Below, piece after piece: positions 700 through 26,317 of a stretch of DNA of 39,013 bases (positions within the stretch are counted from its first letter, which is position 1; the number at the start of each line of letters is the position of its first letter). Under the pieces are notes generated by a model that saw only the letters and a list, made by a program, of their open reading frames with translations, had not been told where the DNA came from and ran no database searches. A program made the translations under genes and the position numbers. The stretch is from Minisyncoccota bacterium. GTDB lineage: Bacteria; Patescibacteriota; Minisyncoccia; Phycocordibacterales; UBA9973. The DNA is taken from contig JAOAUE010000032.1 of assembly GCA_030157745.1 (NCBI GenBank), positions 1 through 39,013 on the forward strand. Direction: 5' to 3'.

Positions 700-1551
700 A
701 TGAAATTCAAAGAAGTTATCAAGGTTAGTCGTCCAAGATTTTGGCTTTATGAAGCGGCAACTTTTGGACTGGTAGGAACTGTGGGGGCGCTTCAAGGTTT
801 GTCTTTTTTTTCTGACTGGCGATACTGGGTATTTGCCCTCTACTTCCTTATACCAGCAAATATTTTGATTTATGGTATCAACGATATATTTGATTACGAA
901 ACAGACAAGCTTAATCCTAAAAAAGGTGATGATGCATATGAAGCTCTAGTGCCACCTGAGAGACAAAAGTCTCTTTGGAAATGGATTTTGTTTACCAACA
1001 TTCCCTTTTTCTTTTTTATTCCACACTCTATAGAGCTAGTACTTTCATTTTTTGCTTTTGTTTTTTTTGCTTCTTTTTATTCTGCAAAACCTATTCGTGC
1101 AAAAGCAAAACCTGTTATTGATTCACTTTTTTCTGCTGGGCACTATGTGGCAACAGGAGTATTTGGTTATTACCTCGCAGGCGGTGTAGACTTCCCTACT
1201 ATTGGAGTAATAGCTGGAATGCTCTGGGCAGTGGCTATGCATGCCTACAGCGCTGTACCTGACATCAAGGCAGACTTGGGAGCGGGTCTACACACTATCG
1301 CTATTATGATCGGAGAAAAGCGCACCATAGCGCTGTGCTGGTTTTTTTATGCTCTTGCAGACTACCTAGTGCGAGACATTATCCCTGTTGCTTCAGTTAT
1401 AGGAGTAATAGCCTTTTCATACTTTATGTGGCGTAGCACTAAAGCACAGACCCCTGAAGCACTCTTTAAGCTCTATACCTACTTCCCGCTCATCAATACT
1501 ATCATTGGCGCCCTTGTCTCAATGGAGCTGTTTGCGAAAAATATTTGGTAA
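700..1551 (+). CDS. UbiA-family prenyltransferase, possibly lycopene-elongase-like given its neighbours
   Basis: 283 aa, multi-pass hydrophobic. Asp-rich prenyl-diphosphate motif NDIFDYETDKLNPKK. Convergent with a desaturase/synthase pair. Confidence 0.8.
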   Translation: MKFKEVIKVSRPRFWLYEAATFGLVGTVGALQGLSFFSDWRYWVFALYFLIPANILIYGINDIFDYETDKLNPKKGDDAYEALVPPERQKSLWKWILFTNIPFFFFIPHSIELVLSFFAFVFFASFYSAKPIRAKAKPVIDSLFSAGHYVATGVFGYYLAGGVDFPTIGVIAGMLWAVAMHAYSAVPDIKADLGAGLHTIAIMIGEKRTIALCWFFYALADYLVRDIIPVASVIGVIAFSYFMWRSTKAQTPEALFKLYTYFPLINTIIGALVSMELFAKNIW

Positions 1552-1619
1552 TATATATTGTAAAAAGGCGTATAAAGGCCCCGGCAGATCTGATTAACCG
1601 GCTTATAAACAGTCAGAAT

Positions 1620-1646
1620 AACCTCTTTAAAAGAGGTTTTTTATTT
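1620..1646. terminator. bidirectional terminator between convergent genes
   Basis: AACCTCTT-taa-AAGAGGTT hairpin flanked by an A-run and a T-run (TTTTTTATTTTT). Lies between the UbiA stop and the desaturase stop. Confidence 0.55.
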
Positions 1647-3152
1647 TTATATCTTCTCTAATGGAAACGGGTGGGTGATATTTTCTATTCGCTTATAGGC
1701 AAGCTCGGCACTGATAAGACATATCGGCATACCGATACCTGGATTTGTCCCCGCTCCGACGTAGTACATGTTTTTTATCTTTGGATGAATATTGTTGGGA
1801 CGGAAGATAGCAGTTTGTGAAAGTGTATGAGCTAGGCCAAGAGCTGTACCTTTGAAAGCATTGTAGTCAGCAATGAAGTCTTTGACTGAGTACATATGCT
1901 TTACAACGATGCGCTCTTTGAGGTTTGGTATAGAGTAATACTGTGATATTTCTGACAAGACTTTTTCTGCATACTCTGCTGCGAAATCTTCTGTATACTC
2001 CAATCCTGATGCAATAGGCACCAAAACAAATAAATTTTCATCTCCTTCTGGAGCAATGAGTTTATCTGTTTTACTTGGTACGCAAATATACATAGATGGA
2101 TCATCCGGCCATTCTGGTCTTTTGAATATTTGTCCAAAGCCTCTTTCCCAGTCTTTGGTAAAAAGAAGATTGTGGTGTTCCATCTGAGGAAGCTTGCCTT
2201 TTACACCAAGATAAAGAATAAACGCACTTGGAGCCAAAACTCTAGAGTTCCAGTATTTATCTGACTTTGTTTGATAATCTTTTGGTAAAAGCATAGTGTC
2301 GGTATGCCAAATATCAGCATTGGAAACAACAATATCTGCAAATATCTCTTTGCCATTTTGTAGCCTTACGCCTTTTGCCACATCACTTTCTACAATGATC
2401 TCTTTTACAGGAGAGTTCAATAAAATCTCAGTGTTGTATTTCTTGGCGATATTTTCTAATGCTGTCGGGATAGCTCTGATGCCTCCACTTGGGTACCACT
2501 CTCCTAAAACAAGGTCGACATAGTTCATGAGAGTATAAATGCCTGGTGTATCTCCTGGAGCAGTTCCGAGCAAAACCGTTTGATACTGTAGAGTCTTTCT
2601 TAATATTTCACTTTTAAACTTCTTTTCTATGATCTGTTTTTGCTTTTTGAAAAGTGGGAGCTTGGAACCTTGTCGCATAATTCGTAGCGTCATAAAGTCC
2701 CTGATTGAGTTGTAATTTTTGTACATAAACTCTGCTTTTGATAGTTCGTATTGCCATTTTGTTTCTGTCAAAAATTTTTCCAAAACTTCCCCAGAGCCTG
2801 GTTCTATGGATTCAAAAAGTTCTTTGTTTTTTTGCATGTCAGAATAAAACTTATAACTTTTGCCGTCGCTTTTGAGAGTGATTTGGTATGACGGAGAGAG
2901 TCGTTCTAGGTGGTAATGGCTTTTTATATCTTCGCCTAAGATTTCAAAAAAGTGTTCAAATACGTCTGGCATCATGTACCAACTAGGACCCATATCAAAC
3001 GTAAACCCTTGATCATTAAATATTCTGGCACGACCTCCGACCATTTCGTTTTTTTCTATCAGCGTCACCTTGTAGCCTTTTTTGCCAAGCATGCCAGCAA
3101 GAGCAAGCCCTCCAATACCGGCACCTATTATGATTACAGATTTTTTGTCCAT
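1647..3152 (-). CDS. crtI: phytoene/dehydrosqualene desaturase family protein (CrtI/CrtN-like)
   Basis: 501 aa. N-terminal FAD Rossmann motif VIIIGAGIGGLALAGMLGKKGYKVTLIEK. Length and C-terminal GAGTNPGIGMP motif are typical of CrtI-family desaturases. Its start overlaps the upstream synthase stop by 19 nt. Confidence 0.85.
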   Translation of the reverse strand: MDKKSVIIIGAGIGGLALAGMLGKKGYKVTLIEKNEMVGGRARIFNDQGFTFDMGPSWYMMPDVFEHFFEILGEDIKSHYHLERLSPSYQITLKSDGKSYKFYSDMQKNKELFESIEPGSGEVLEKFLTETKWQYELSKAEFMYKNYNSIRDFMTLRIMRQGSKLPLFKKQKQIIEKKFKSEILRKTLQYQTVLLGTAPGDTPGIYTLMNYVDLVLGEWYPSGGIRAIPTALENIAKKYNTEILLNSPVKEIIVESDVAKGVRLQNGKEIFADIVVSNADIWHTDTMLLPKDYQTKSDKYWNSRVLAPSAFILYLGVKGKLPQMEHHNLLFTKDWERGFGQIFKRPEWPDDPSMYICVPSKTDKLIAPEGDENLFVLVPIASGLEYTEDFAAEYAEKVLSEISQYYSIPNLKERIVVKHMYSVKDFIADYNAFKGTALGLAHTLSQTAIFRPNNIHPKIKNMYYVGAGTNPGIGMPICLISAELAYKRIENITHPFPLEKI

Positions 3153-3991
3153 ATAGATTTTAAGAGTAACATTGTTTTTTGTAATGGACTAATAACTATT
3201 CTTTTTGAAAATGTATCGTAGGCTGATTTTTCCATCTCTTGCAGTAGCTCTTTGTAAATAAGATAAGATGCATAAACCGCCTTTCTACCTCTTCCTCTTA
3301 ACATAGTGATACCCCGCTTGCCGTTTTCTAGCAAAGTCTTGGCTCGCCCTACTTCAAAAGCCATCAAATCTCTCCATGCTTGGTCCGAAATATTATTTTT
3401 TATATGATCCTCTGTAACACCAAAGCGATCCATGCCTTCTTTTGGCAAATAAATCCTGCCTCGAGAGATATAATCTTCTTTTGAGTCTCTCAGGAAATTT
3501 ATCAACTGAAAAGCCTCTCCAAGAGATTTTGCGTGGCTAAGTGCCCCTTCATCAAAACCAATGATATGACTCATCGCCATACCGATAACAGAGGCTGAGC
3601 CATACATATACTGCTCTAGTTCTTGGTATGAAGCGTACCTATCTTTTATTAAATCTTGGTGCATAGCTACCAAAAAATCATGGCTATACTCTAGTGGTAT
3701 TTTGTACAAATCAAATATTTCTTTTGTTGCAAAAAGTATAGGGTCATAGCTTTGGTCTTTTTTGCCATCAAGCACACTTTTCCAATCATCAGTCCATTTG
3801 TTTAATTCGAGGAGCGCTTTTTGTTTATCTTGCTGACTATCTACCATCTCATCTGGCAACCGAACAAAAGCATAAAATATCCAAGTCGCCTCTCTTACTT
3901 TTTTTGGAAACAAAAAAGAAGCCCGGTAAAAACCACGGCCAAAATCTTTTGTTATTTTTCTGGCTCTTTCTAAAACTTCTTTTGATATCAT
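3134..3991 (-). CDS. crtB: phytoene/squalene (dehydrosqualene) synthase family protein (CrtB/CrtM-like)
   Basis: 285 aa. Asp-rich motifs (YAFVRLPDEMVD; NFLRDSKEDY) and YMYGSASVIG, as in head-to-head isoprenoid synthases. Operonic with the desaturase. Confidence 0.85.
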   Translation of the reverse strand: MISKEVLERARKITKDFGRGFYRASFLFPKKVREATWIFYAFVRLPDEMVDSQQDKQKALLELNKWTDDWKSVLDGKKDQSYDPILFATKEIFDLYKIPLEYSHDFLVAMHQDLIKDRYASYQELEQYMYGSASVIGMAMSHIIGFDEGALSHAKSLGEAFQLINFLRDSKEDYISRGRIYLPKEGMDRFGVTEDHIKNNISDQAWRDLMAFEVGRAKTLLENGKRGITMLRGRGRKAVYASYLIYKELLQEMEKSAYDTFSKRIVISPLQKTMLLLKSIWTKNL

Positions 3992-4045
3992 TTATAAAAT
4001 CTTTTTTAAATACTCTCCGGTAAAGCTATGTTTATTATTGGCGAC
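3992..4045 (-). pseudogene. relic copy of the uvrA 3' end (last 17 codons plus TAA), abutting the crtB ATG
   Basis: The minus strand reads GTCGCCAATAATAAACATAGCTTTACCGGAGAGTATTTAAAAAAGATTTTATAA, encoding VANNKHSFTGEYLKKIL-stop. This is the same peptide as the real uvrA end at 4116-4169. Confidence 0.8.
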
Positions 4046-4115
4046 CCCGCAGGAAAGTATTGTATCTTATTGCACACAATACTTCCAACGGGGCGAGATG
4101 TGGCTTGATTGTTTT
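4046..4115 (+). other. 70-nt structured insertion element, copy 1 (unknown class)
   Basis: Fold: CCCCG...CGGGG closing helix; GGAA(A)GTATTGT / ACAATACTTCC inner helix with a bulged A; then CGAGATGTGGCT and a T-rich tail. Related copy at 9320-9382 on the other strand. Confidence 0.6.
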
Positions 4116-6830
4116 CTACAATATTTTTTTAAGATACTCTCCGGTAAAGCTATGTTTGTTATTGGCGACTTCTTCTGGGGTACCTTTGGCGATAATTTTT
4201 CCGCCCGCTATTCCTCCTTCGGGACCAAAGTCGATAAGGTGGTCAGCACATTTGATAAGGTCGAGGTTGTGTTCAATCACCACGACAGTGTTGCCTTTGG
4301 CTACAAGGCGATTTAAAACTCCTATCAAGTTCTTTACGTCATCATAGTGAAGCCCAACAGTTGGTTCATCGAGAAGATAAATAGTTTTTTCTAAGTAAGG
4401 ACGATAAAGTTCACTAGCGATTTTTACGCGTTGCGCTTCTCCACCTGATAGTGTTGTGGCGCTTTGTCCGAGCTTCACATATCCTAGCCCTACTTCTGAT
4501 AGAGTTTTGAGTCTGTCATAAACAGCTGGTATATCAGCAAAAAATTCCAAACCTTCTTCAACAGACATTTGCAAAACATCATAAATATTTTTGCGCTTGT
4601 ATTTTACAGTGAGAGTTTCTTTATCAAATCTTTTCCCGCCACAAACATCACAGGTGACATACACAGTTGGCAAAAAGTGCATCTCTACTGCTATCTCTCC
4701 GTTACCTTCACAGGCTTCACATCTTCCACCTTTGACATTGAAAGAAAATCTGTTGACCTTCCATCCACGCAGACGCGCTTCTTCTGTTTGAGCAAATATG
4801 TCTCTGATATGGGTAAATGCTCCTGTATATGTAGCAATATTTGATCTAGGAGTACGACCTATTGGAGACTGATCTATCATGATGGCGCGGGCTAGATATT
4901 CGGTACCAGTAAAAGATGCGCAGTTGTAAACCTTGGCACTACGAAGTTTGCGCTCAAATCTAGCTTGGAGATTTTTGTACAAGATTTCATAAAGAAATGT
5001 ACTCTTACCACTTCCTGAGACTCCAGTGATAGCAACCATTTTTCCAAGTGGTACATCTATATTTTGATTGTGAATATTATGAAGATTTGCTCCGACAATT
5101 TTCAAAACCCCTTTGTCTTGGTCTCGACGCTTCTCTGGAGTTTCTATTTCCTCTTCTTTACGCAAATAAGCTAGAGTTCGAGAACCGCTTTCGTTTTTCT
5201 TGGCGGAGAGAAGTTTGTCCAAATACCCAGAAACAATGACTTGCCCTCCATGGACACCAGCACCAGGGCCAATATCAACAAGATAGTCTGAAGCATAGAT
5301 AGTATCTTCATCATGCTCAACAACCAAAATAGTGTTACCCATATCACGTAGATCTTCCAAAGTCCTTATAAGTCTTTCATTGTCTCTTTGGTGTAGGCCA
5401 ATAGTCGGCTCATCGAGTACATACATGGCCCCTACAAGTCGAGACCCGAGCTGAGAAGCTAGTCTGATACGCTGTGCTTCTCCTCCAGAGAGAGTGTTGG
5501 CGGTACGAGAAAGAGCCAAGTAGTTGAGCCCAACATTAAGAAGAAAGTTCAAACGATCTTCTATTTCTTTGAGAACTGCTTTGGCAACCTCCATATCCTT
5601 GGCCGAGAGTTTGAGAGAGCCAAAGAACTCAAAAGCTTCTTCTACAGAAAGCGAGGTGAGGTCAACGATATTAATTTTCGTCGACTTAAGACTAGTACTT
5701 TTTTTCGTGTCTGGCATAGCGCTAGCTACGAGATCCGAGGACCGAGAAAACCCTGCAGACTTGGCGCTTGTAGACTCCAAAAATACATTCAAAGCTTCTG
5801 GGCGAAGTCTCTTGCCTCCACAAACTTCACAAGCCTCTGTGCCACCAAAGAACTTTGTTCCAATACCATTACACTCAGGACAAGCTCCATATGGCGAGTT
5901 GAAAGAGAAAAGTCTCGGCTCAATCTCTGGAAAAGAATACCCATCATTTGGGCAAGAGAACTTGGAAGACATCAAAAACTCTTGAAGAGTTTGTGTCTCC
6001 ATATCAAAGTCTTCTGATACACCAAAAACTACTTGGACCAATCCATCAGCCTCAAGGAGAGCTCGCTCTGTTGCTTCAAAGAGTCGGAGCTCTGCATCTC
6101 GAGGGCTATCTTTAAATTCGTGAACCGCTAATTCATCTACTAAAACTTCGATAGTATGCTTGTCATTTTTCTTGAGCTCTATACGCTCTCGGAGTTTGTG
6201 AATCTTGCCATCAATACGCACAGTGCTAAAACCTTTACCTATCAGATCATATAGGAGTTGATAGTACTCCCCCTTTCTTCCGCGAACAATCGGCGCATAT
6301 ATTTGAATTCGAGTGTCATTAAATTCCACACCCATTACGGACTTATTTTTAGCTTTAGAAAATTCTTTTATCTTTCCTAAAATAAAAGTATTTATTTCCT
6401 CTGGAGAGAGCTTTTGTATAAGAGTGCCACAAACAGGACAATATGCCTTGCCGACACGCGCATATAGCACGCGCATATAGTCATACATTTCAGTGATTGT
6501 CGCGACCGTAGAGCGAGGATTGTTGGAGCGAGATTTTTGGTCAATGGAAATCGCAGGAGAAAGACCACTGATTTCATCAACATCAGGCTTGGGCATTTGG
6601 TTTAAAAATTGCCGAGCATAACTAGATAGACTCTCCACGTAACGACGCTGTCCTTCCGCGAAGATAGTATCAAAAGCCAAAGAGCTCTTGCCGGAGCCTG
6701 AAAGTCCGGTAATAGCGATCATTTTACCTCGAGGCATCTCAACAGACACATTTTTGAGGTTGTGTGTTCGAGCACCTTTGACTACTATAAGCCCAGCATT
6801 TGATTCATTTTTTGACTCTGCTTTCTTCAT
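4116..6830 (-). CDS. uvrA: excinuclease ABC subunit UvrA
   Basis: Two ABC modules (GLSGSGKSSLAFDT, GVSGSGKSTF, two LSGGEAQR signatures) and CxxC zinc modules. The ATG at 6830 (MKKAESK...) is preferred; the ORF track starts at a GTG at 6890. Confidence 0.95.
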   Translation of the reverse strand: MKKAESKNESNAGLIVVKGARTHNLKNVSVEMPRGKMIAITGLSGSGKSSLAFDTIFAEGQRRYVESLSSYARQFLNQMPKPDVDEISGLSPAISIDQKSRSNNPRSTVATITEMYDYMRVLYARVGKAYCPVCGTLIQKLSPEEINTFILGKIKEFSKAKNKSVMGVEFNDTRIQIYAPIVRGRKGEYYQLLYDLIGKGFSTVRIDGKIHKLRERIELKKNDKHTIEVLVDELAVHEFKDSPRDAELRLFEATERALLEADGLVQVVFGVSEDFDMETQTLQEFLMSSKFSCPNDGYSFPEIEPRLFSFNSPYGACPECNGIGTKFFGGTEACEVCGGKRLRPEALNVFLESTSAKSAGFSRSSDLVASAMPDTKKSTSLKSTKINIVDLTSLSVEEAFEFFGSLKLSAKDMEVAKAVLKEIEDRLNFLLNVGLNYLALSRTANTLSGGEAQRIRLASQLGSRLVGAMYVLDEPTIGLHQRDNERLIRTLEDLRDMGNTILVVEHDEDTIYASDYLVDIGPGAGVHGGQVIVSGYLDKLLSAKKNESGSRTLAYLRKEEEIETPEKRRDQDKGVLKIVGANLHNIHNQNIDVPLGKMVAITGVSGSGKSTFLYEILYKNLQARFERKLRSAKVYNCASFTGTEYLARAIMIDQSPIGRTPRSNIATYTGAFTHIRDIFAQTEEARLRGWKVNRFSFNVKGGRCEACEGNGEIAVEMHFLPTVYVTCDVCGGKRFDKETLTVKYKRKNIYDVLQMSVEEGLEFFADIPAVYDRLKTLSEVGLGYVKLGQSATTLSGGEAQRVKIASELYRPYLEKTIYLLDEPTVGLHYDDVKNLIGVLNRLVAKGNTVVVIEHNLDLIKCADHLIDFGPEGGIAGGKIIAKGTPEEVANNKHSFTGEYLKKIL

Positions 6831-6921
6831 AAATATAAGCGATTGTACCACAAAATTAGAAGCATTCCCTGTATATCTGTAGAGCCCCACCAGTAATCAT
6901 TTATACCTCTACAAAGAGAAC

Positions 6922-6950
6922 TTGACATGAATGTTGTAAATATGTAGTAT
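6922..6950 (+). promoter_or_regulatory. sigma70-like promoter
   Basis: TTGACA (6922-6927), 17-nt spacer, TAGTAT (6945-6950), about 15 nt upstream of the 6965 ATG. Confidence 0.5.
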
Positions 6951-6964
6951 CAATAAAAAAATAC

Positions 6965-7153
6965 ATGATTATTATGAATAAACATCCTTTTTTATCAGAC
7001 TCATGGATTGACGAACACCTCTCCAACTTAGATGGAGAAACTTGTACTAGCGAACATCCTTACTATGGACATAAAAAATGCTTAGCGGATAATTGGAAAG
7101 AAGTACTTTTTACTATAACCCTTGGGATTTCTGTAATTTTGATTTTTACTTAA
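6965..7153 (+). CDS. small hypothetical protein with a C-terminal TM helix (62 aa)
   Basis: ORF preceded by a consensus-like promoter and followed by a hairpin plus T-run. No family recognised. Confidence 0.4.
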   Translation: MIIMNKHPFLSDSWIDEHLSNLDGETCTSEHPYYGHKKCLADNWKEVLFTITLGISVILIFT

Positions 7154-7167
7154 GATAAAGTACTTAA

Positions 7168-7195
7168 AACGGGCTTCTAAGCTCGTTTTTTTTTA
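7168..7195 (+). terminator. rho-independent terminator overlapping the uvrB stop region
   Basis: AACGGGC...GCTCGTT stem with one G-T pair, followed by a run of 9 T. Confidence 0.45.
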
Positions 7196-9319
7196 TTTCT
7201 CTGGATTAATATATGTTTTATTTTTCAGCACCACTATCTCATCTCTCAGTATTGCGGCGGTTTCGAAGTCTAAGACTTTCACTGCTTCTTTCATTTCTGC
7301 TTCTTTGAGTGCAATAAGTTTTTCGATAGGGTTTTTCTTTCCTTTTCCTTTCTTACCACCTGCTTTTTCTACCGCGGCAAAGAGTTCCATATCGAGAGCA
7401 AGCTCGGCGTTGACTGCTTTTGCATGATCACTTTCCATCCCTTCGGTAATATCATTGATAGCTTTTGAGATAGTCTTTGGAGTGATGCCGTGTTTTTTGT
7501 TATAAGCGAGTTGCACATCTCGGCGTCTTTTGGTCTCGCCCATTGCCCGCTCCATAGAGCCTGTTATTTGGTCAGCATAAAGAATAACTCTTCCATTAGC
7601 ATTTCGAGCTGCCCGACCTATGGTTTGGATCAGGGAGACTTCACTTCGCAAAAATCCTTCTTTGTCTGCATCCAAAATACCAATAAGCGAAACCTCTGGC
7701 ATATCAAGACCTTCACGAAGCAGGTTAACTCCAACCAAAACATCGAAAGCTCCTTTTCGGAATTTTGTAATAATCTGAATACGCTCGATAGTTTTAATAT
7801 CGCTGTGCATATATTCTGCTTTGACACCTTTTTCTTTGAGATAAGCAGAGAGATCTTCAGCCATTTTTTTGGTTAGGGTTGTAGCAAGTACTCTGCCACC
7901 TTTTTTGATTTCTGACACAGCTTCGTTGATAAAGTCTTGGACCTGACCAGGGTAGTTTCTAGGTTCTAGGTTCAAGTTTTTAGTTTCTAGAACCTTGTCA
8001 CTAGCAACTAACACCTGCTCCAAAATCGGTCGGACCAAAACTTCTGGGTCTACGAGCCCTGTTGGACGAATGATTTGCTCTACTGTTTGTTCACTTAGCT
8101 CTGCTTCATTTTTCCCTGGTGTTGCGGAGACAAATATAGTTTGGCCGATGCGTTGTTTGAACTCTTCGAACTTAAGAGGTCTGTTGTCTTTGGCGCTAGG
8201 TAGACGGAAACCAAAATCTACGAGAGTTTGCTTTCGAGAAGCGTCCCCTGAATACATAGCTCCGAGTTGAGGAAGTGTGACATGAGACTCATCTATAAAT
8301 AATAAAAATTCAGGATTGCCATCCTTGTCGTGAGGAAAATATGAAAGTAGGGTCTCTGGTGGCTCTCCCGCTTTTTTGCCAGATAGAAGCCTAGAATAGT
8401 TTTCTATACCAGAGCAATACCTCATCTCTTTGATCATGGCCATATCATAAGAAGTACGACGCTTTAGCCTCTCTGCTTCCAGGAGTTTGCCTTCTTTTTC
8501 AAAATAAGCGAGCTGGGATTTGAGTTCATATGCGATAGCTTTGACTGCTTTTTCTTTTTGGTCTTCGGCTGTTATGAAGTGCTTAGCTGGGAAAACAAAA
8601 ACATGATTTTCTTCTTGTAAAATACGAGAGGACACCGGATCTATCTTTAGTATCTCTTCTACTTTATTTCCTGAAAAAGCAATACGATACTGAAGAGTTT
8701 CTGAAACTGGCATTATCTCAATAGTATTACCGAGCGCACGGAACTGAGCTGGTGAGAGATCGGCATTTGTTCTTTCATAGTGGATACCGATGAGCCTTTG
8801 CATAGCTTCTGTCCTAGACAAAGTCATACCTTTTTCTATTTTGAAATTTACTCTCTCATATTCAACAGGAGAACCAAGACCATAAATACAAGACACGGAG
8901 GCTACAATGATCACGTCTTTACGAGTAAGCAAACTCTGAGTGGTTGCATGACGAAGTCTATCTATTTCCTTATTTATTTGTGCATCTTTTTCTATATAAG
9001 TATCTGTTGTTGGTAAATAAGCCTCTGGTTGATAGTAATCATAATAAGAAACAAAGTAGTGAACCGCATTGTTAGGAAAAAAGCTTTTGAACTCACTAGC
9101 AAGCTGGGCAGCGAGAGTTTTGTTGTGAGCAATGATAAGGGTAGGCTTTTGAACACTGGCGATAATGTTGGCCATAGTAAAGGTCTTCCCTGTTCCTGTA
9201 GCACCAAGAAGAGTTTGCATTTGCAAACCTTTTTTAAGGCCAGAAAGAAGACCTTTGATAGCTTCTGGCTGGTCTCCACCCGGAGCGAAATCACTTATTA
9301 AGTCAAATTTATTTTCCAT
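7193..9319 (-). CDS. uvrB: excinuclease ABC subunit UvrB
   Basis: 708 aa. Walker A GATGTGKTFTMA, YYDYYQPEAY beta-hairpin region, DESH box, helicase C motifs, C-terminal UVR domain (LDFETAAILRDEI). Confidence 0.95.
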   Translation of the reverse strand: MENKFDLISDFAPGGDQPEAIKGLLSGLKKGLQMQTLLGATGTGKTFTMANIIASVQKPTLIIAHNKTLAAQLASEFKSFFPNNAVHYFVSYYDYYQPEAYLPTTDTYIEKDAQINKEIDRLRHATTQSLLTRKDVIIVASVSCIYGLGSPVEYERVNFKIEKGMTLSRTEAMQRLIGIHYERTNADLSPAQFRALGNTIEIMPVSETLQYRIAFSGNKVEEILKIDPVSSRILQEENHVFVFPAKHFITAEDQKEKAVKAIAYELKSQLAYFEKEGKLLEAERLKRRTSYDMAMIKEMRYCSGIENYSRLLSGKKAGEPPETLLSYFPHDKDGNPEFLLFIDESHVTLPQLGAMYSGDASRKQTLVDFGFRLPSAKDNRPLKFEEFKQRIGQTIFVSATPGKNEAELSEQTVEQIIRPTGLVDPEVLVRPILEQVLVASDKVLETKNLNLEPRNYPGQVQDFINEAVSEIKKGGRVLATTLTKKMAEDLSAYLKEKGVKAEYMHSDIKTIERIQIITKFRKGAFDVLVGVNLLREGLDMPEVSLIGILDADKEGFLRSEVSLIQTIGRAARNANGRVILYADQITGSMERAMGETKRRRDVQLAYNKKHGITPKTISKAINDITEGMESDHAKAVNAELALDMELFAAVEKAGGKKGKGKKNPIEKLIALKEAEMKEAVKVLDFETAAILRDEIVVLKNKTYINPEK

Positions 9320-9382
9320 AAAAGTTAAAAAATATTAGATAGCCCCATCTCGCCCCGTTGGAAGCGCTAGCTTTCCTTCGGG
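9320..9382 (-). other. 63-nt structured insertion element, copy 2
   Basis: The minus strand reads CCCGAAGGAAAGCTAGCGCTTCCAACGGGGCGAGATGGGGCTATCTAATATTTTTTAACTTTT. It has the same closing helix, bulged A and CGAGATGxGGCT tail as 4046-4115, but a shortened distal stem. Confidence 0.6.
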
Positions 9383-9427
9383 GTCTCCACCCGGAGCGAA
9401 ATCACTGACTAACCCAAACTTATCCAT
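9383..9427 (-). pseudogene. relic copy of the uvrB 5' end (ATG plus 14 codons), now heading a 30-aa chimeric upstream ORF (9335..9427)
   Basis: Encodes MDKFGLVSDFAPGGD, against MENKFDLISDFAPGGD at the functional start. The last 24 nt are identical to 9272-9295. Reading continues into the element and stops at TAA 9335-9337. Confidence 0.75.
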
Positions 9428-17224: not shown

Positions 17225-17300
17225 GCCGCTTTAGCTCAGTTGGTAGAGCAACGCTTTTGTAAAGCGAAGGTCGTCAGTTCAAGTCTGACAAGCGGCTCCA
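17225..17300 (+). tRNA. tRNA-Thr (anticodon TGT) with encoded CCA
   Basis: Manual cloverleaf fold: acceptor GCCGCTT/AAGCGGC; D arm GCTC-AGTTGGT-AGAGC; anticodon arm ACGCT-TTTGTAA-AGCGA with anticodon TGT; variable loop AGGTC; T arm GTCAG-TTCAAGT-CTGAC; discriminator T plus CCA. Confidence 0.9.
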
Positions 17301-18828
17301 TCACTCGCATTTCGTCGGGAATACTAAAATTAGCACGGGCGGCGCGAAGCGCCGACCACGGATTTTCGCCTGATTTTGAAACAGCATTCTCGGAATTCGG
17401 CGCGCTCGCACGCACTGTTTTTTCGCCAAGGAGGAGGTTCGAGCCAAAGACTTTTTTGGCAGCAACCTTTTTATCTAAAAAGTTGCTATCCAATGCGATT
17501 TTTTCCATATCCTGAGCCTCTTTTATCCATTTTGCCATCGGTTCGAGCCACAATTTTTGTTTGCTCTCCGAACGAGAGATTTCTTCCTCCAGCGACTTTT
17601 TCTCGGATAATAATTTTGCTTTTTCCGCTCGATAAATTTCCTTTTCTATATCTTGATCTAAATATCCGTCTAAAAGTCGCTGGAGCTTCACTGTGATGCC
17701 TTGTATCTTTTTCTCGTTTTCGAAAACAAAAATATGAACAGATTGGGCGGATTCCGTTTTGTCTTTTTCAAGTCTTTCATTCAGATAATCCGCCCAATCT
17801 TGTGGCATAGAAACTTTTTGAAGAAGTGATGAAATTTGCGCGTCCATTTTTTCTGCTCGAATACAAGGTTCAGGGCATTTTTGAGTTTTTGATTTCTTGG
17901 TACAGCGATAATATGTATAGAAATGTTGAGTACCATTTTTCTGCGTTTTTACCTTGTATTCGCCAGTTATTTGCATTCCGCACGACGCGCACGAAAGCAG
18001 TCCGCAATATGCTTGTGGATTATTCTTATGCTTACCAGTCGGACGACTTTTCCGCTCCATCACTTCTTGCACCTGGTCAAAAAGTTTCTTTGACACGATT
18101 GGCTCGTGCTTGCCTTCGTGTACTTCGAGATTAAACCTGAAATGTCCGTAATAAAATGGATTTGAGAGGATAAAGGTCGTACGCGAGATGTGGATTCTCT
18201 TTCCTTGTTTGGTTAGCAAGCGGTTTGCTTCAAAATACTCGCCGATACTTTGAAGTGTAGAATCTCCTTTTGCGTAAAGTTCAAATGCTTGGCGAATAAT
18301 CGGAGCAGTCTTTTTGTCAGCAACAACAGTTTTCGTCCTCGAATCGTTTATATACCCCACCGGAGCCAGACTTGGATATTCGCCACGCCTGACTTTCTGC
18401 CGCAAACCGCGCTTCGTATTTTCGGAAAGAGAATCCACATAGTATTTGCTTTGTCCAAATGCCATATTGAGCATAAACTTGCCTTGTGAACTGCTGTCAC
18501 ACCAAAATGTCGGGAATTTTAAACTCACAAGTTTTTCTGTGTCGAGGAGATAGATAATACGCCCACCATCAACAGAATTACGAGCGAGACGGTCAGGATG
18601 CCACGCGAGAATATTTCCGCCGAGTTTTTCAATTTCATTTAGCATCTCGTTAAATATCGGACGACCAGGAATCTTGGCAGATTGTTTTTCCACATACTCG
18701 GCGGAGATTTCAATATTCTCTCGCGTGGCATAGTCTCGCAATTCTTGAAGTTGTGCTTCAATCGAAAGAACCTGCTTATCCTCGACATCAGTTGACTTGC
18801 GAGCATACAAAAAGAATTTTTCACTCAT
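17236..18828 (-). CDS. large serine recombinase (resolvase/invertase N-terminal domain, recombinase domain, zinc ribbon, coiled coil)
   Basis: YARKSTDVEDKQVLSIEAQ catalytic-Ser region; WHPDRLARN; Cys-rich CASCGMQ...YYRCTKK...CPEPC; long coiled coil. The last ~42 codons lie in inverted repeat IR1, and the final 20 codons read antisense through the tRNA, so the exact functional C-terminus is uncertain. Confidence 0.85.
   Translation of the reverse strand: MSEKFFLYARKSTDVEDKQVLSIEAQLQELRDYATRENIEISAEYVEKQSAKIPGRPIFNEMLNEIEKLGGNILAWHPDRLARNSVDGGRIIYLLDTEKLVSLKFPTFWCDSSSQGKFMLNMAFGQSKYYVDSLSENTKRGLRQKVRRGEYPSLAPVGYINDSRTKTVVADKKTAPIIRQAFELYAKGDSTLQSIGEYFEANRLLTKQGKRIHISRTTFILSNPFYYGHFRFNLEVHEGKHEPIVSKKLFDQVQEVMERKSRPTGKHKNNPQAYCGLLSCASCGMQITGEYKVKTQKNGTQHFYTYYRCTKKSKTQKCPEPCIRAEKMDAQISSLLQKVSMPQDWADYLNERLEKDKTESAQSVHIFVFENEKKIQGITVKLQRLLDGYLDQDIEKEIYRAEKAKLLSEKKSLEEEISRSESKQKLWLEPMAKWIKEAQDMEKIALDSNFLDKKVAAKKVFGSNLLLGEKTVRASAPNSENAVSKSGENPWSALRAARANFSIPDEMRVMEPLVRLELTTFALQKRCSTN
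17296..17421 (+). repeat. inverted repeat IR1, left copy (126 bp)
   Basis: Exact reverse complement of 18907-19032, checked base by base. Imperfect extension to 17442 / 18886. Confidence 0.9.
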
Positions 18829-18906
18829 TTATTGATTCTAACAAAAATTCTTTTTGTATGTAAATAGCAAAAATTGCATTTGATTTCGAACCTCCTCCTC
18901 CAAAAC

Positions 18907-19032
18907 AAAACAGTGCGTGCGAGCGCGCCGAATTCCGAGAATGCTGTTTCAAAATCAGGCGAAAATCCGTGGTCGGCGCTTCGCGCCGCCCGTGCTAATT
19001 TTAGTATTCCCGACGAAATGCGAGTGATGGAG
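18907..19032 (-). repeat. inverted repeat IR1, right copy (126 bp); a duplicated recombinase 3' end
   Basis: Exact reverse complement of 17296-17421. Read on the plus strand it encodes ...SNLLLQNKTVRASAPNSENAVSKSGENPWSALRAARANFSIPDEMRVME, the recombinase C-terminal peptide. Confidence 0.9.
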
Positions 19033-19215
19033 TGGTTGTACGATTCGGCTCGAACCTATTTCATCAAAAATTCATAAATGTATTAAATGCGGACTCGGTT
19101 TTGCGAAAGCTCTTTTTTGGGGACACGGATTTCGCAAAACCTCGGCTGATTCTTTTTTGGCATTCGCCTCTGGTTCTGGGTTCTCCCGCAGGAGGGGTTT
19201 GGGGAGGAATGCGGG
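19030..19215 (+). repeat. inverted repeat IR2, left copy (186 bp)
   Basis: Exact reverse complement of 26046-26231, checked base by base. Overlaps IR1-right by the 3-nt GAG core. Ends 2 nt before the RT1 stop codon. Confidence 0.9.
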
Positions 19216-19217
19216 GG

Positions 19218-20306
19218 TTATTTTGGGTCTTTGAGAAAATGTTTAAACTTATTCCGTAAGCGATAACTATTGGCATGAGAAAAATGTCCGAGATATGAGC
19301 TTATGCCAGCTTGTAATTTCTCTCGCGTTTTCTCGTGGCAAGGAAGCCTCAATTTTTCTGCCCTCTGTTTACACCTTCCAACAGTTGCCCGACGAACGAG
19401 GACATGAGTGGGCTTGATAATATACCCGACGAAGTCAATACCGTGGCGCACTCGTTGCAAGATAATTTTCCGCGGATGGATGTTGAGCTTGCGTTCTCTC
19501 TTCAGCCACACTTCTATCTGTACCACCGCACTCTTTAATTTTTCTTTATCCGCATCAAGAAATACGAAATCGTCCACATACCTCGCGTAGCGAGGAAATC
19601 CGAGCGTCTGGCTGATATATTTATCAAGCCCGTCGAGATAGCAGTTAGCGAAGAATTGCGAGGTCAAGTTCCCTATCGGCAAGCCCGTACCGCCGGAGTA
19701 AAAGAGTGATTTATGTTTCGGGATAAGTGCTTTGAGTGCAGTATCTCCCCTGTAAATATAATCAAGTGTCGGGTCACAAAAGATAACCTGCTCGCAAATC
19801 CAAAGCATATCCCCTTTCCACCACTCGGGTTTTTCTTGCTGATTGATAAGCCCTGCGATGACATCAAAAAGAATTGGTCGGTCAATCGAACGGAAGAAGC
19901 TCTCGACATCAAGCTTCAGATACCAATCATTCGGGCGCTCTCGGGCATAGGCACGCACTTGCTTGAATCCTGAGTGCGTCCCCTTGCCTTCCCTATTGGC
20001 ATACGAAGTTGGCACGAACCAACTTTCGCACAAAGGAGCAAGCTCGTTGTAAATAATATGGTGTATAACCCGATCACGAAAGTCGGCAGCAAAAATCTCT
20101 CTCGGCTTCGGGTCAGTCACGACAAAAGAAATATGTCGACTGATGCAGTATGTCCGTTCAGTGAGTTCTTTCCGCAGACTGATAAGCTCGCGCTCCCGCA
20201 AGAGTTCAAACCGAAGTCGATTGACTGTTTTCTTTTTACGCTTGATACAGCTCTTGTACGCCAGCCAGAGATTCTCTAAGGTAAAAATAGTTTCTACTGT
20301 ATTCAT
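19218..20306 (-). CDS. DGR reverse transcriptase 1
   Basis: RT motifs, including the DGR-typical LPIGNLTSQFFANCYL and the YxDD box YARYVDDFVFL. Lies immediately downstream of TR1. Start taken at ATG 20306 (MNTVETIFTLENLWLAYK); alternative start 20327. The track ORF extends to 20606 only by reading through TR1. Confidence 0.9.
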   Translation of the reverse strand: MNTVETIFTLENLWLAYKSCIKRKKKTVNRLRFELLRERELISLRKELTERTYCISRHISFVVTDPKPREIFAADFRDRVIHHIIYNELAPLCESWFVPTSYANREGKGTHSGFKQVRAYARERPNDWYLKLDVESFFRSIDRPILFDVIAGLINQQEKPEWWKGDMLWICEQVIFCDPTLDYIYRGDTALKALIPKHKSLFYSGGTGLPIGNLTSQFFANCYLDGLDKYISQTLGFPRYARYVDDFVFLDADKEKLKSAVVQIEVWLKRERKLNIHPRKIILQRVRHGIDFVGYIIKPTHVLVRRATVGRCKQRAEKLRLPCHEKTREKLQAGISSYLGHFSHANSYRLRNKFKHFLKDPK

Positions 20307-20354
20307 TTGGTCTGTTATTGTGCGCATAAAGCAGAGGGTTCGATAGAGGAGTTC

Positions 20355-20491
20355 TCGAACACACCGGACATAGTTGCCATTGGTCTTATCATTCGCATCA
20401 GAGTTGCCATTGTTGAAGTTCACGTTCCAGGCGTTGTTCTCATTGCCCGGATTCTGATAGGTAGAGGACGACCAGTAGTTGTCCGACTGTG
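20355..20491 (-). repeat. DGR-1 template repeat (TR1, 137 bp)
   Basis: Aligns without gaps to 21137-21273 with 25 mismatches. 24 of them are at TR adenines (sense strand). Asn (AAY) codon-rich in frame. Confidence 0.9.
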
Positions 20492-20605
20492 AAATATGAT
20501 ATGTGCGTGACTGTCCGTGTCGGACGTACAGCGCAAATTCGTTTCGTTTATCCTCAGAACTATTAAAAATAATTCTGAGAGCACACACTGAACTCCTCGT
20601 CCTCA

Positions 20606-21007
20606 CTAAAACAATGTTTTTATAGTTGTCTTATTCTGGGTGGGCGCAGTTTTTTTCGGACTGCACGAAGTTCTCCAACCCTCTGCTTGACGCGCGCAAT
20701 CCACCACTTGCTCGACCAGATACAAGTATTGCCGCGGCGAAGCGAACTGCTTCAGCTCCTCGGCTACGCGGAGCATAATCGTAATCTCCTCAATCTTCCA
20801 AACCAACTCACTCAAAACAGCACTCCTGTGTTCAACCGGAGTGCTATTGGCTTTTACGATCAGCCGTACTGCTTCCATCGCGCTTGCAAGGAGCGATGCG
20901 CCGAGCGTGTACTTGTATTGCTTGTCTATTTTCGGCACACGAATGTAGAACTCTTTCAGGAGCCTGAACGTTGCGCTATAGATAGGGAGGTGTTGGTATT
21001 GAGCCAT
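20606..21007 (-). CDS. avd: DGR accessory variability determinant (Avd-like four-helix-bundle protein)
   Basis: 133 aa helical, basic protein in the canonical position between the target gene and TR/RT. Sequence resembles the four-helix-bundle (23S rRNA IVS protein) family. Confidence 0.75.
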   Translation of the reverse strand: MAQYQHLPIYSATFRLLKEFYIRVPKIDKQYKYTLGASLLASAMEAVRLIVKANSTPVEHRSAVLSELVWKIEEITIMLRVAEELKQFASPRQYLYLVEQVVDCARQAEGWRTSCSPKKTAPTQNKTTIKTLF

Positions 21008-21025
21008 AGAAAAATATCACCCCCC

Positions 21026-21047
21026 CCCCTCGCGAAAACGCGAGGGG
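21026..21047 (-). promoter_or_regulatory. GC-rich hairpin (9-bp stem, 4-nt loop) downstream of VR1, embedded in a G10 tract
   Basis: CCCCTCGCG-AAAA-CGCGAGGGG on the plus strand. About 86 nt 3' of the target stop codon and 19 nt 5' of the avd ATG. Confidence 0.5.
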
Positions 21048-21133
21048 AAGAATAACCAAAGGAATAAAAAGAATCGAGAAAAGAACCCAAAGAAAAACCG
21101 CAAAAATTATCAAATAAACAAATCATCAAAGAA

Positions 21134-21976
21134 TTATCGAACACACCGGACATAGCCGCCCTCGGCCTTACCAACCGCATCAGAGTAGCCATCGCCGAAG
21201 CTCACGAGCCAGGCGCCGCCCTCACCGCCCGGACCCTGATAGGTAGAGGACGACCAGTAGCTGCCCGACTGTGTGTTTGGGAAGAATGTCGTATCGATGG
21301 CAGGGTTGACTGTGGCAAGGCTCACAATGGAAAGAAGTTCGATTCTATTTGGCAAGCGCCAGTCACTGTGTCCCGCTGTGGTATCGGCTTCACAGGTCGA
21401 GAGCGCAGTCGTCCAGTCAAGTCCAGTAGCAGAATCAGCCGAACAGTCAGTATCTGATTGTCCTTCGGAACATTTTTTCCACATAAGTCCTGTCGCGTTA
21501 TCCGAAATCGTGCTGTCAGTATTATCTACAAATCGCGCGCCGCTTGTGGGTAAACCTTTTTCGTAGTCGCCATCTTGTCCGGTACCAGTACACGATATTG
21601 GAGTACCACTTGCATCCCAACAATCAGTCTGACCAGTTTTTGGTAGTCCAGCTTGTCCAGCCGATGCAGTACCTGCAACGCCCATATATGTCGTCCCTGT
21701 GAGTATTTTAGTCGCATCAAGCGTCGGAATGCTTTCATAAATCTGCTTGAGGGTGTGAAATGTCGCAGACACAGAGCCAGGCGTAGTAAACGAAGCCGAA
21801 CCTTCGACTTGGCTTGTCGTGTTGTCGATGAGTCTGTTGTAAATGCCATCGAGTGTGTACATCGTGCTTGCCGGAACTCCAGGCGGAGTAAGCGAACCTG
21901 CAAAACTTGTGCGGACAAATGCACCGATTATAAATGCGACGAGAACAAAGGAACCGATTTTTAGAAACTTTTTCAT
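21134..21976 (-). CDS. DGR-1 variable target protein, secreted DUF1566 (Lcl C-terminal / C-type-lectin-fold) protein
   Basis: Signal peptide. GLMWKK...HSDWRLPNRIELLSIV...YWSSSTY...YVRCVR is the DUF1566 signature. The C-terminal 45 codons are VR1. Confidence 0.9.
   Translation of the reverse strand: MKKFLKIGSFVLVAFIIGAFVRTSFAGSLTPPGVPASTMYTLDGIYNRLIDNTTSQVEGSASFTTPGSVSATFHTLKQIYESIPTLDATKILTGTTYMGVAGTASAGQAGLPKTGQTDCWDASGTPISCTGTGQDGDYEKGLPTSGARFVDNTDSTISDNATGLMWKKCSEGQSDTDCSADSATGLDWTTALSTCEADTTAGHSDWRLPNRIELLSIVSLATVNPAIDTTFFPNTQSGSYWSSSTYQGPGGEGGAWLVSFGDGYSDAVGKAEGGYVRCVR
21137..21273 (-). repeat. DGR-1 variable repeat (VR1)
   Basis: 137-bp match to TR1 with adenine-specific substitutions, at the extreme 3' end of the target ORF. 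Confidence 0.9.
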
Positions 21977-21977
21977 A

Positions 21978-22856
21978 TTATTTACTATTTAATTTATTTC
22001 TTGTAATAGGACCGACGATGCCATCTGCTGTGAGAGTATTATTTTTTTGAAACGTTACCACCGCTTGCTTGCTCTTTGGACCAAAAATGCCGTCAGTCAC
22101 TAAAGGTGGCGACAATGTCTGAACTTTTTTGTTGAGACATATTTGCAAGTCTTTGACGTTGGTGTTATTCATCCGAGGAATTGTCAGCTTTAAAGTTTGA
22201 GTGAAGTTGAGTGTACACACTGTAGTAGGTAAAGTTGTCGGAAGTGTTGTAATCACAATAGTTCCCTCGCTTGCAGTCAAATACGATCCTTTGCAATCTG
22301 GATCAGCTAAATCAATCTTCCCATCGTGGTCATCGTCAATGCCATTGTTGCACTGTGTGATTATTCGCCCTCCCCCACTACTGTGACTAGTACTTGGTGC
22401 GGGCGTGACTGGTGGTCGCCACGCAGTCGTCACTTTGTAGTCCACTGTCCCGCAACTTGAAGTGTTGGCGCAGTTAAAAGAGATCCAACCGATATTTGGG
22501 CTATATGCGTAGCCAGAAAAAATTCCAGTGCTTGTGTTGATGGTCGCCTGAGAGAAATCCACATAGCCAGTATTCTCGCTCCACGCGTAACCTGAGAGTG
22601 TGCCGGAGGAATTTGAAACTTTGTAATCAGTGGTACCGCATGAACTAGTGTTATCACAATTGAGCGACAACCAGCCGATGTTCGGACTGTACGCATAGCC
22701 GGAAAGTACGCTACTTGAAACAGTCACTTGAGAAAAATCTATCCAGCCAGTATTCTCGCTCCAGGCATAACCGGAGGTGCTATCTGCAAACGCTTTTGTC
22801 GCAGAGAAAAACATTATTGATAATATGAATAAACTAAAAACGGATTTTAATCTCAT
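21978..22856 (-). CDS. secreted repeat protein with a C-terminal peptidoglycan-binding domain
   Basis: Signal peptide. Two ~70-aa repeats carrying GYAWSENTGW(I/V)DFSQ and GYAYSPNIGW(L/I)S(L/F)NC. C-terminal PG_binding_1-like DGIFGPKSKQAVVTFQKNNTLTADGIVGPITRNKL. Its stop is 1 nt from the DGR-1 target start. Confidence 0.8.
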   Translation of the reverse strand: MRLKSVFSLFILSIMFFSATKAFADSTSGYAWSENTGWIDFSQVTVSSSVLSGYAYSPNIGWLSLNCDNTSSCGTTDYKVSNSSGTLSGYAWSENTGYVDFSQATINTSTGIFSGYAYSPNIGWISFNCANTSSCGTVDYKVTTAWRPPVTPAPSTSHSSGGGRIITQCNNGIDDDHDGKIDLADPDCKGSYLTASEGTIVITTLPTTLPTTVCTLNFTQTLKLTIPRMNNTNVKDLQICLNKKVQTLSPPLVTDGIFGPKSKQAVVTFQKNNTLTADGIVGPITRNKLNSK

Positions 22857-22877
22857 TCTATTATTATACCCCCCCCC
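22857..22877 (-). promoter_or_regulatory. G9 tract abutting a TATAAT box 6 nt upstream of the ATG (candidate leaderless promoter of the DGR-1 operon)
   Basis: The minus strand reads GGGGGGGGG-TATAAT-AATAGA-ATG. Confidence 0.4.
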
Positions 22878-22904
22878 GAGCGTTTTGGCAAGGGTGTTGC
22901 CCCC

Positions 22905-23930: not shown

Positions 23931-23992
23931 AATAACTATAAAGATACCCCCCCCCGACAACGCTTTTACCAGTACTTCAGAAACTCAAAACT

Positions 23993-24313
23993 GTGTATAT
24001 CTTATGGTATCAGTATTATCAAAACTTGCCTAAAGCCCATCGCTACTCGCTTGGAGTACGGATTGATGCCTTGTTCGTAGAAATAATGGAAGCTATCTCA
24101 CTTGCAGGATTTCTTCCCCGTAGCGAGAAACAAACCTATGTACGGCTCTCTATACGGAAAGTAGATACTCTTAAAATCTTACTGATGATTGTATGGGAAA
24201 CGAAATCTATAGATAATAGGAAATACATCGCCCTCTCTGTACCACTTGAAGAAATCGGGAAAATGCTCGGCGGTTGGAACGGACAGCTTACAAAACAAAA
24301 CTCCCCCAACTAA
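23993..24313 (+). CDS. avd: Avd-like four-helix-bundle protein, divergent from RT2
   Basis: 106 aa helical protein (…AHRYSLGVRIDALFVEIMEAI…KVDTLKILLMIVWETKSIDNRKYIALSVPLEEIGKMLGGW). GTG start. Lies between RT2 and TR2 but on the opposite strand. Confidence 0.65.
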   Translation: MYILWYQYYQNLPKAHRYSLGVRIDALFVEIMEAISLAGFLPRSEKQTYVRLSIRKVDTLKILLMIVWETKSIDNRKYIALSVPLEEIGKMLGGWNGQLTKQNSPN

Positions 24314-24337
24314 ATAGTTGAGGGAGAAAGAAGAGAG

Positions 24338-26231: not shown

Positions 26232-26244
26232 AAGGATATACAAA

Positions 26245-26310: not shown

Positions 26311-26317
26311 GGCATAA

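Follow-up and report, generated by a model that had tools for sequence, protein, structure and literature searches.

A small hairpin insertion flanked by relic and replacement gene ends at uvrA and uvrB in Patescibacteria

A contig of a Minisyncoccota bacterium (Patescibacteriota; GCA_030157745.1, contig JAOAUE010000032.1, positions 1 to 39,013; this whole stretch of 39,013 nt is called the window below) carries a short hairpin module at the 3′ end of uvrA and again at the 5′ end of uvrB. On one side of each module lies a severed gene end (the relic), and on the other a diverged version of the same end, fused in frame to the body of the gene. Comparison with related genomes shows that the structure is an insertion relative to the native state, that the fused termini are foreign and that it is horizontally distributed. 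We estimate a probability of about one half that it represents a miniature, non-coding, non-autonomous insertion that replaces gene termini, spreads horizontally and is joined at its hairpin by a trans-acting enzyme. Altogether, the module occupies three kinds of uvr gene termini in at least four lineages.

Two copies of the module in the window

At the uvrA 3′ end, the segments 3992-4045 and 4116-4169 of the minus strand have the same translation, VANNKHSFTGEYLKKIL followed by a stop codon. They differ at exactly 7 nt in 6 codons, every change is synonymous, and six of the seven lie within the last 18 nt (p = 0.004 for the clustering). In 200,000 simulations of seven random substitutions the peptide was never kept (p < 1e-5). 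Translation and simulation thereby confirm the initial annotation, which had described synonymous differences concentrated at the stop codon and had considered a plain target-site duplication unlikely; the exclusively synonymous differences exclude it. The outer segment (3992-4045) is the relic, comprising 17 codons and the stop severed from uvrA. Its stop adjoins the crtB ATG as TAAATG, and its last 18 nt and the crtB junction are as in insert-free relatives (loci L037 and L038, see below). The inner segment (4116-4169) is the replacement end. Its proximal 36 nt have 1 mismatch to the relic, while its distal part is strongly diverged, with 6 synonymous differences in a foreign stretch of 18 nt (4116-4133). 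The uvrA gene to which it is fused (4116-6890, minus strand, likely start near 6830) is intact, with the Pfam domains UvrA_inter and ABC_tran and homologues that are 82-94% identical.

The 70 nt separating the two uvrA ends (4046-4115) form a lower stem of 5 bp (CCCCG/CGGGG), a 2x2 internal loop and an upper stem in which one A is bulged. Both RNA and DNA folding reproduced the hairpin originally proposed, with z-scores of -2.8 (plus strand) and -5.7 (minus strand) for RNA and -3.65 for DNA. Module copy 1 is read on the plus strand, antisense to uvrA. Its hairpin (4045-4093), with a GGAA-A-GTATTGT upper stem and a 12-nt loop above the CCCCG/CGGGG lower stem and internal loop, is followed by the conserved 3′ motif CGAGATGTGGCT (4094-4105), whose prefix CGAGAYG is common to all canonical copies, and by an A+T-rich spacer, or tail, that extends to the functional uvrA stop codon (4106-4115). 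This copy scored 91.3 bits and 75.8 bits with covariance models of the module. A sigma-70-like match (TTGGAA, 18 nt, TACAAT; 4059-4088, minus strand) lies inside the hairpin and faces the relic and crtB. This is only a resemblance to the consensus, and shuffled sequence is expected to contain as many sites of this type as the region does.

The second copy (9320-9382, minus strand), already listed in the initial annotation, is real and does follow GG(C/A)GAC, but it is flanked by a duplicated start of uvrB and not by a duplicated gene end. In the direction of uvrB, the native upstream region and the native start MDKFGLVSDFAPGGD (relic, 9383-9427) precede the hairpin (9353-9383), the conserved motif CGAGATGGGGCT (9341-9352), a 21-nt A+T-rich tail, ATCTAATATTTTTTAACTTTT (9320-9340), and the replacement start MENKFDLISDFAPGGD (9272-9319), all on the minus strand. 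The latter leads into an intact UvrB of 708 aa (7193-9319, minus strand, new start MENKF) with the Pfam UvrB domains. The hairpin, which matched the covariance model with 74.4 bits, shares its lower stem, internal loop and bulged A with copy 1, but has a short upper stem and a 4-nt loop. Native and new starts differ non-synonymously and by one codon: the 24 nt nearest the gene body show 0 differences, the distal part is strongly diverged, and the first 24 nt of the replacement are foreign. The reading frame of the relic stays open through the module and ends with a TAA located 15 nt upstream of the new ATG.

The two copies are inverted relative to each other and bracket uvrB and uvrA. In both, the hairpin side abuts the short terminal fragment directly after GG(C/A)GAC and the tail (3′) side faces the functional gene. 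The 24-nt motif CTTCCAACGGGGCGAGATGNGGCT occurs 2 times in the window, against 0 expected. Two cargo types, a uvrA end and a uvrB start, thus share one module.

Other ideas about these copies were considered and rejected. The inverted pair does not mark a single imported uvrB-uvrA cassette: a related locus (L042) has the uvrB copy only, the imported tract at another (L045) ends within uvrB, about 400 nt from its start, and divergence in the uvr gene bodies does not exceed that of adjacent genes. An origin as template and variable repeats of a diversity-generating retroelement (DGR) was likewise discarded, as the differences between the uvrA ends (T/C, A/T, G/A and similar) are not confined to adenines and are all synonymous. 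Finally, copy 2 had looked like a hot spot of strain variation (the strain variant L008 versus the window), but variation there is no denser than in other recombination patches, and we do not use it as evidence.

Insert-free relatives carry the relic-type termini

The insert is missing at both sites in L037 and L038, whose UvrA is 94% identical to that of the window. In both, uvrA runs through ..GAGTATTTAAAAAAGATTTTATAAATG straight into crtB, which is the sequence of the relic and not that of the functional end, ..TATCTTAAAAAAATATTGTAG. Their uvrB starts with MDKFELIS behind an upstream region matching that of the window relic. L041 (UvrB 95% identical) is also empty and has the start MDKFELVS; the window relic matches the native starts of L037 and L041. 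Because these empty relatives match the relics, the outer relics are, by this comparison, the native gene termini, and the gene-fused termini are foreign imports. The uvrA-crtB junctions of close relatives without the insert therefore support the initial suggestion that the outer uvrA copy is ancestral. Despite the insertions, uvrA and uvrB stay intact because a foreign version of the terminus is fused in frame. The structure is not an assembly artefact, since it is found in more than eight independent assemblies of the same species.

Related copies at uvr termini of other lineages

As proposed initially, further copies were sought with covariance models. Models R1 and R2 were scanned over the window and 229 kb from 13 related loci, and starts of uvrB were surveyed among 120 UvrB cluster representatives. 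These analyses revealed copies with a relic and a replacement terminus in other lineages. Only 3 of the 120 representatives start with MENKF, and all three of their loci carry relic and module. In L042/L043 (UvrB 87% identical), the relic MSKFELVSDFKPGGD is followed by the junction GAC/CCCAATGGAAAGCTGTCGCTTCCAACGGGGCGAGACG.. and the new start MENKFNLVSQFTPSGD; in L045 (UvrB 79% identical), the relic is MKFKLSGEYQPAGD, the junction GAC/CCCGTACAAAGC..GCTTCTAACGGGGCGAGATGTGG.. and the new start MENKFKLSGEYAPAGD. In the window, L042/L043 and L045 alike, the module occupies one and the same uvrB codon, directly following GGNGAC. The relic peptide in L042 and L045 is exactly the native N-terminus of its own clade, and the first five new uvrB codons are nucleotide-identical across lineages, ATGGAAAATAA(A/G)TTT (ATGGAAAATGAATTT in the strain variant L008). 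The uvrA end of L042 has no insert.

A third kind of terminus is represented by L049, where a decayed copy lies at the uvrA 5′ end between two versions of the terminal segment. It is translated in frame as MPKKENTDQ-GNIIIKGARAH / LEGNRFAESARASDGAGN / GHIVVKGARTH-NLK, adding 18 extra residues, and the differences between the duplicate segments are mostly synonymous or conservative. Whereas GGNGAC precedes the module at the uvrA 3′ end and at the three uvrB 5′ loci, the junction in L049 reads GCTCAT/CTCG, so that the rule of an invariable GGNGAC, raised as a question at the outset, fails for this diverged copy.

An exact-pattern scan of JGI metagenomes gave one real match, L034 (1-202 of OGVY01011573.1); the other 18 matches were due to chance. 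L034 is a chimeric fold-back contig with the sequence-independent single-primer amplification (SISPA) primer sequence GTTTCCCAGTCACGATA at both ends. A palindrome of 70-75 nt, perfect apart from one A/C mismatch at the base of the hairpin, has the imperfect hairpin at its centre and looks like a product of hairpin-primed fold-back synthesis. The contig continues into an actinobacterial gene for an ABC-2 permease, truncated near residue 157. The module thus exists elsewhere, but the insertion context of this contig is unusable.

Conserved anatomy and restricted distribution of the module

The conserved module reads (A)CCCCG, 2 nt, GGAAAG, a variable upper stem and loop, CTTCC, AA, CGGGG and CGAGAYGNGG. 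The basal stem CCCCG/CGGGG is present in every canonical copy and the basal half of the hairpin is invariant, the upper loop varies from 4 nt to about 24 nt, and base pairing persists in 94.7% of pair cells, two pairs of the upper stem showing compensatory changes. Positions after CGAGAYG differ between copies (L042, for instance, has GTTAGG), and at the motif the diverged L049 copy reads CAGGCAATGGA. Between relic and new terminus lie 61-76 nt without an open reading frame (ORF). After the hairpin comes CGAGAYG on one strand and coding sequence on the other. Near-identical repeats that could be att cores (36 nt and 24 nt) flank the window copies; no such identity exists in L042, L045 or L049.

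The module resembles no catalogued RNA family: Rfam returned no match at the gathering threshold and none usable at E <= 10, only chance-level hits with E >= 0.64. Neither window copy has a terminator-like site or a U-run after the hairpin. The initial suggestion to check Rfam, terminator and repetitive extragenic palindromic (REP) families therefore ended without a match. Within the window and the 229 kb of related loci, matches to R1 and R2 occur only at uvrA or uvrB termini, 2 of them in the 39-kb window. An exact-pattern scan of GTDB species genomes gave 7 hits, all by chance and in G+C-rich genomes; scans of IMG/VR gave nothing or chance matches, and BLAST against phage and plasmid collections found no match. 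When the 30-aa relic reading frame was searched against 1.8 billion representative proteins with HMMER, only the relic ORF of L042 was recovered. Among the loci examined, no version has extra genes between relic and new terminus, and an arrangement with the module beside uvrB and no relic, as a donor might have, was not found.

At the new uvrB start, the tails hold -10-like boxes (TAATAT, TATATA or TATTAT) 9-12 nt upstream of the new ATG; in the window, TAATAT lies 12 nt upstream. Expression could start from such a box. Alternatively, translation may terminate and reinitiate after the relic reading frame, which in L042 and L045 overlaps the new ATG as ATGGAAAATAA, a geometry that is that of translational coupling.

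Occupied alleles move between close relatives by homologous recombination

The occupied locus L045 can be compared with a closely related empty allele, L046, which reads ..GCAGGAGAC/CAGCCC... Over the last ~2 kb of uvrB and beyond, the two show 0 differences, and the L045 relic matches L046 at 41 of 42 nt. In contrast, L045 is diverged over the first ~400 nt of uvrB (about 7% over nt 100-400, and more densely in the new start), and it differs from L046 upstream of the relic as well. In a three-way comparison, L045, L046 and L047 are equidistant (6-7%) over nt 100-400, and L045 is unique over nt 1-63, including positions beyond the GAC codon. The occupied allele of L045 was thus acquired, as a tract of probably at least 2 kb, from a donor that already carried the insert and is about 7% diverged. 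Given this imported tract next to an otherwise identical gene, spread among relatives occurs by homologous recombination, and the allele comparison shows movement from occupied to empty genomes as ordinary homologous recombination with co-conversion of flanking gene sequence. Integration of a minicircle of 104-124 nt alone was considered and does not fit L045, where differences reach past the GAC codon. A flanking tract of the co-conversion type is therefore visible, as the initial annotation had considered for a homing-type element; no enzyme that would mobilise the module in trans and no homing nuclease could be linked to it.

In L044 (GCA_964595255.1, CAZQOP010000025.1, 4395-4500), which belongs to the same species as the empty L041, a scaffold gap of 100 N lies exactly at the uvrB insertion point (..GGGGACC[N]GACCAGCC.., with flanks ..GGTGGGGACC and GACCAGCC..). 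The upstream region is otherwise identical to the empty allele of L041, which hints at a polymorphic or unresolved insert.

A model for insertion and its alternatives

According to the model that we prefer, the element is made up of a hairpin module (31-49 nt, and CGAGAYGNGG in addition), an A+T-rich spacer and a substitute gene terminus. It lies among the 14-18 codons at either end of a conserved gene. The native terminal fragment, on the hairpin side, becomes a dead relic, and the gene body is completed in frame, on the spacer side, by a terminus of the same kind but of foreign origin. To enter a new clade, the element would need a fresh junction at the same nucleotide, because in three clades the relic is clade-native up to the junction and its last 20 nt differ. 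Long-homology recombination through the relic would be insufficient, since the junction is recreated at the same nucleotide in each clade. Two routes could produce such a junction. In route (a), a trans-acting enzyme, possibly a tyrosine recombinase of the integron-attC or CTX-like kind or an HUH-type nuclease, would recognise the folded hairpin and join its 5′ base to GGNGAC, and the gene-body side would be resolved by homology. In route (b), illegitimate recombination facilitated by homology would be anchored in the gene body, with GGNGAC as microhomology and the hairpin shielding the incoming strand end. We slightly favour route (a), because the sequence and fold of the module are conserved across three termini and distant hosts and because no relic-less donor was seen. 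Most GGNGAC sites, about 90% (34 of 38 in the window), are coding. Selection for a working gene would therefore mainly keep insertions where the carried terminus restores the interrupted gene, and could match cargo to target without homology-guided targeting. Taken further, the module could belong to a new class of structure-defined mobile DNA, in which a hairpin of ~50 nt is recombined in trans as a folded single strand, together with a captured gene terminus, and is site-specific when moving between clades, spreading thereafter by recombination; it could thus settle in coding sequence of conserved genes and leave them functional. We consider this larger claim less likely than not.

Several observations weigh against a dedicated mobile element. 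Copy number is very low, and every usable copy lies at a uvrA or uvrB terminus. A search for a recombinase, transposase or nuclease that could be tied to the module found none; the window contains only a large serine recombinase and DGR reverse transcriptases, which belong to an unrelated island. Neither a solo module nor a circular form was seen among the sequences searched. The L049 copy joins at GCTCAT/CTCG and its hairpin folds no longer, the import in L045 is plain homologous recombination with no evidence of a site-specific step, and the uvrA and uvrB bodies are no more diverged than neighbouring genes. Moreover, L042, L045 and L049 were selected for their odd UvrA or UvrB N-termini, which biases the sample of the distribution; both window copies, however, lie at uvr genes among about 35 window genes.

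Alternatively, the structures could be passive recombination scars. Foreign uvr DNA, taken up for example by natural transformation, would have been trimmed as far as a stable hairpin with a G+C clamp, a native neighbour of uvr genes in some donor lineage, and then incorporated by homology-facilitated illegitimate recombination at GGNGAC microhomology, which encodes a conserved Gly-Asp, with no dedicated enzyme. Such scars would account for one boundary that is clearly homologous and variable in position, for another always at the hairpin base, for a module always oriented into the gene like a native flanking element, and for the low copy number, the restriction to uvr genes and the lack of a linked enzyme gene. 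However, no relic-less donor configuration came to light, as all 3 of the 3 MENKF-type UvrB loci have relics; the junction falls at the same nucleotide in three clades that differ in the preceding 20 nt; and a neutral scar would not be expected to keep its sequence and fold across three termini and in hosts with only 79% UvrB identity. We regard passive scarring as possible but on balance doubtful. Improbable by comparison is an origin from larger islands or prophages that carried an integrase and targeted uvrA and uvrB termini, deletion having left only the att-proximal ends (CIME-like, for cis-mobilizable elements). The layout of relic and replacement terminus is exactly that of such islands, and the 36- and 24-nt direct repeats of the window might be att cores, yet these repeats are not conserved in L042 or L045, a single hairpin module would have to serve three different att sequences, and the compact layout of 61-76 nt recurs in three uvrB lineages and at uvrA with no larger version seen.

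A host function for the module, as an RNA leader or operator shared by nucleotide-excision-repair genes, would fit its presence only at uvrA and uvrB and the uvrB leader, where a relic frame ending at or near the new ATG could give translational coupling. At the uvrA 3′ end, however, the module is antisense to the gene; it is missing from most relatives, its half-site spacing of 4 to about 24 nt is unsuited to a duplex operator, and the duplicated termini would be left unexplained, which together make regulation very unlikely. We give hardly any credence to target-site duplication by an ordinary transposon or miniature inverted-repeat transposable element (MITE) followed by drift, or to an assembly artefact. 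Direct repeats do flank a small insert, but their lengths are unequal (33, 42-45 and 54 nt), all 7 of the 7 differences at uvrA are synonymous, it is the functional copy and not the relic that departs from the outgroup, and many independent assemblies agree.

Comparison with known systems

Elements that bring a surrogate gene end include e14 and phage 21 in icd (3′ end), SXT/R391 in prfC (5′ end and a new promoter) and the dusA islands. Like these, the module lies in terminal codons, with a diverged functional replacement terminus and the native relic on its far side, so that the likeness to e14 and phage 21 drawn in the initial annotation holds as a description. Those islands are 10-100 kb long and encode their own integrase, whereas the module of 61-76 nt is about 100 times smaller and has no ORF; also unlike them, one module serves three gene termini.

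In architecture, the hairpin resembles integron attC sites and the CTX attP: it is imperfect, its basal stem is conserved and its internal loop unpaired, and it has an extrahelical base in the upper stem and a tip of variable length. As in the module, the junction of attC cassettes lies at the hairpin base, and these cassettes are non-autonomous and moved in trans. The module is, however, shorter than typical attC sites and has the basal stem CCCCG/CGGGG instead of an RYYYAAC/GTTRRRY core, and there is no intI, attI or cassette array; the window ORFs include no tyrosine recombinase, and the module copies are single and not arrayed. Homing introns, inteins and free-standing endonuclease genes share with the module a fixed site in a conserved motif, patchy presence and co-imported flanks (L045 versus L046/L047). 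Unlike homing elements, the insert has neither an endonuclease gene nor splicing, its neighbours are tgt, uvrB, uvrA and crtB, and the gene is saved by a duplicated terminus instead of by removal of the insert from RNA or protein.

Rickettsia palindromic elements are likewise small palindromic inserts in coding sequence, comparable to the L049 copy that is read in frame. They are, however, present in high copy number and in many genes and duplicate no gene segment, and the module differs in all three respects. IS91/ISCR and IS200/IS605 derivatives have a hairpin at one fixed end and insert 3′ of a short sequence with no fixed-length duplication, as the module does in its canonical copies, though not in L049 with its GCTCAT junction; its other end is likewise variable and carries DNA captured from the neighbourhood up to a copy of the target motif. 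In contrast to IS91 and IS200, it has a single hairpin, no HUH transposase is known here and the cargo is always homologous to the target. With 2 copies in the 39-kb window and none away from uvr termini in 229 kb, it also differs from REP sequences, REP doublets forming hairpins (REPINs) and MITEs, being not dispersed between genes; unlike in MITEs, its flanking repeats are diverged gene segments of 33-54 nt and not short target-site duplications of fixed length. We know of no described class that matches a hairpin insert with substitute gene ends.

If the module is a true mobile element, it would reduce the strategy of bringing one's own gene end to about 110-125 nt without a gene of its own, would imply an unrecognised trans-acting activity that recombines or nicks hairpins in Patescibacteria, and would explain why conserved genes in metagenome assemblies can show odd N-terminal variants, short upstream ORFs and scaffold gaps. 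As a recombination scar, it would be a rare natural record of foreign DNA patched into essential genes of uncultivated bacteria. Under either reading, models R1 and R2 provide a concrete, searchable motif for a census.

Genomic surroundings

Directly after uvrA lie crtB, crtI and a gene for a UbiA-family prenyltransferase (window 700-3991; L037 12668-16003). In the empty L037 the uvrA stop overlaps the crtB start (TAAATG), and uvrC lies a few kb beyond the carotenoid genes (L008 15047-16363), an arrangement that suggests a co-expressed cluster of uvrA and carotenoid genes for UV protection. Compared with L037, the UvrC encoded there, outside the window, contains two short segments inserted in frame, LGSPKQGGGG and HSASSAGSLQEGSGQAKKEAQ. 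The spacer between uvrB and uvrA (window 6891-7192) contains only a 59-aa ORF (6974-7153, plus strand). The corresponding spacer holds a DoxX-family gene in L037, L039 and L044, and a DUF3750 gene and another gene in L042; no DoxX remnant is detectable in the window.

Farther away, an island of roughly 9 kb (window 17225-26340) lies beside a tRNA-Thr gene (17225-17300) and is missing from the syntenic interval between SBP and EF-Ts in L041, L042 and L048. It includes a large serine recombinase gene (17236-18828, minus strand), flanked by 147-nt inverted repeats (17296-17442 and 18886-19032, 96% complementary), and two reverse-transcriptase/bAvd cassettes. A perfect inverted repeat of 186 nt (19030-19215 and 26046-26231) encloses the DGR region, whose two genuine template/variable pairs are 20349-20491/21131-21273 and 24338-24437/24803-24902, in which adenines of the template copy account for 24 of 27 and 17 of 17 differences, respectively. 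The first variable repeat is the 3′ end of a gene with an Lcl_C domain (21134-21976), and the second lies in the ORF 24799-25410.

Two further observations concern uvrB itself. At codons about 434-455 (window about 7900-7960), an in-frame insertion or replacement of about 57 nt encodes QVLVASDKVLETKNLNLEPRN where the UvrB homologue P0361 and L041 have DGSYQ; it holds the inverted repeat GGTTCTAG..CTAGAACC and may be another small palindromic in-frame insert. Another UvrB homologue, P0235 (1228 aa), contains an intein with LAGLIDADG and intein-splicing Pfam domains, and uvrB is therefore also a target of classical homing elements in these bacteria.

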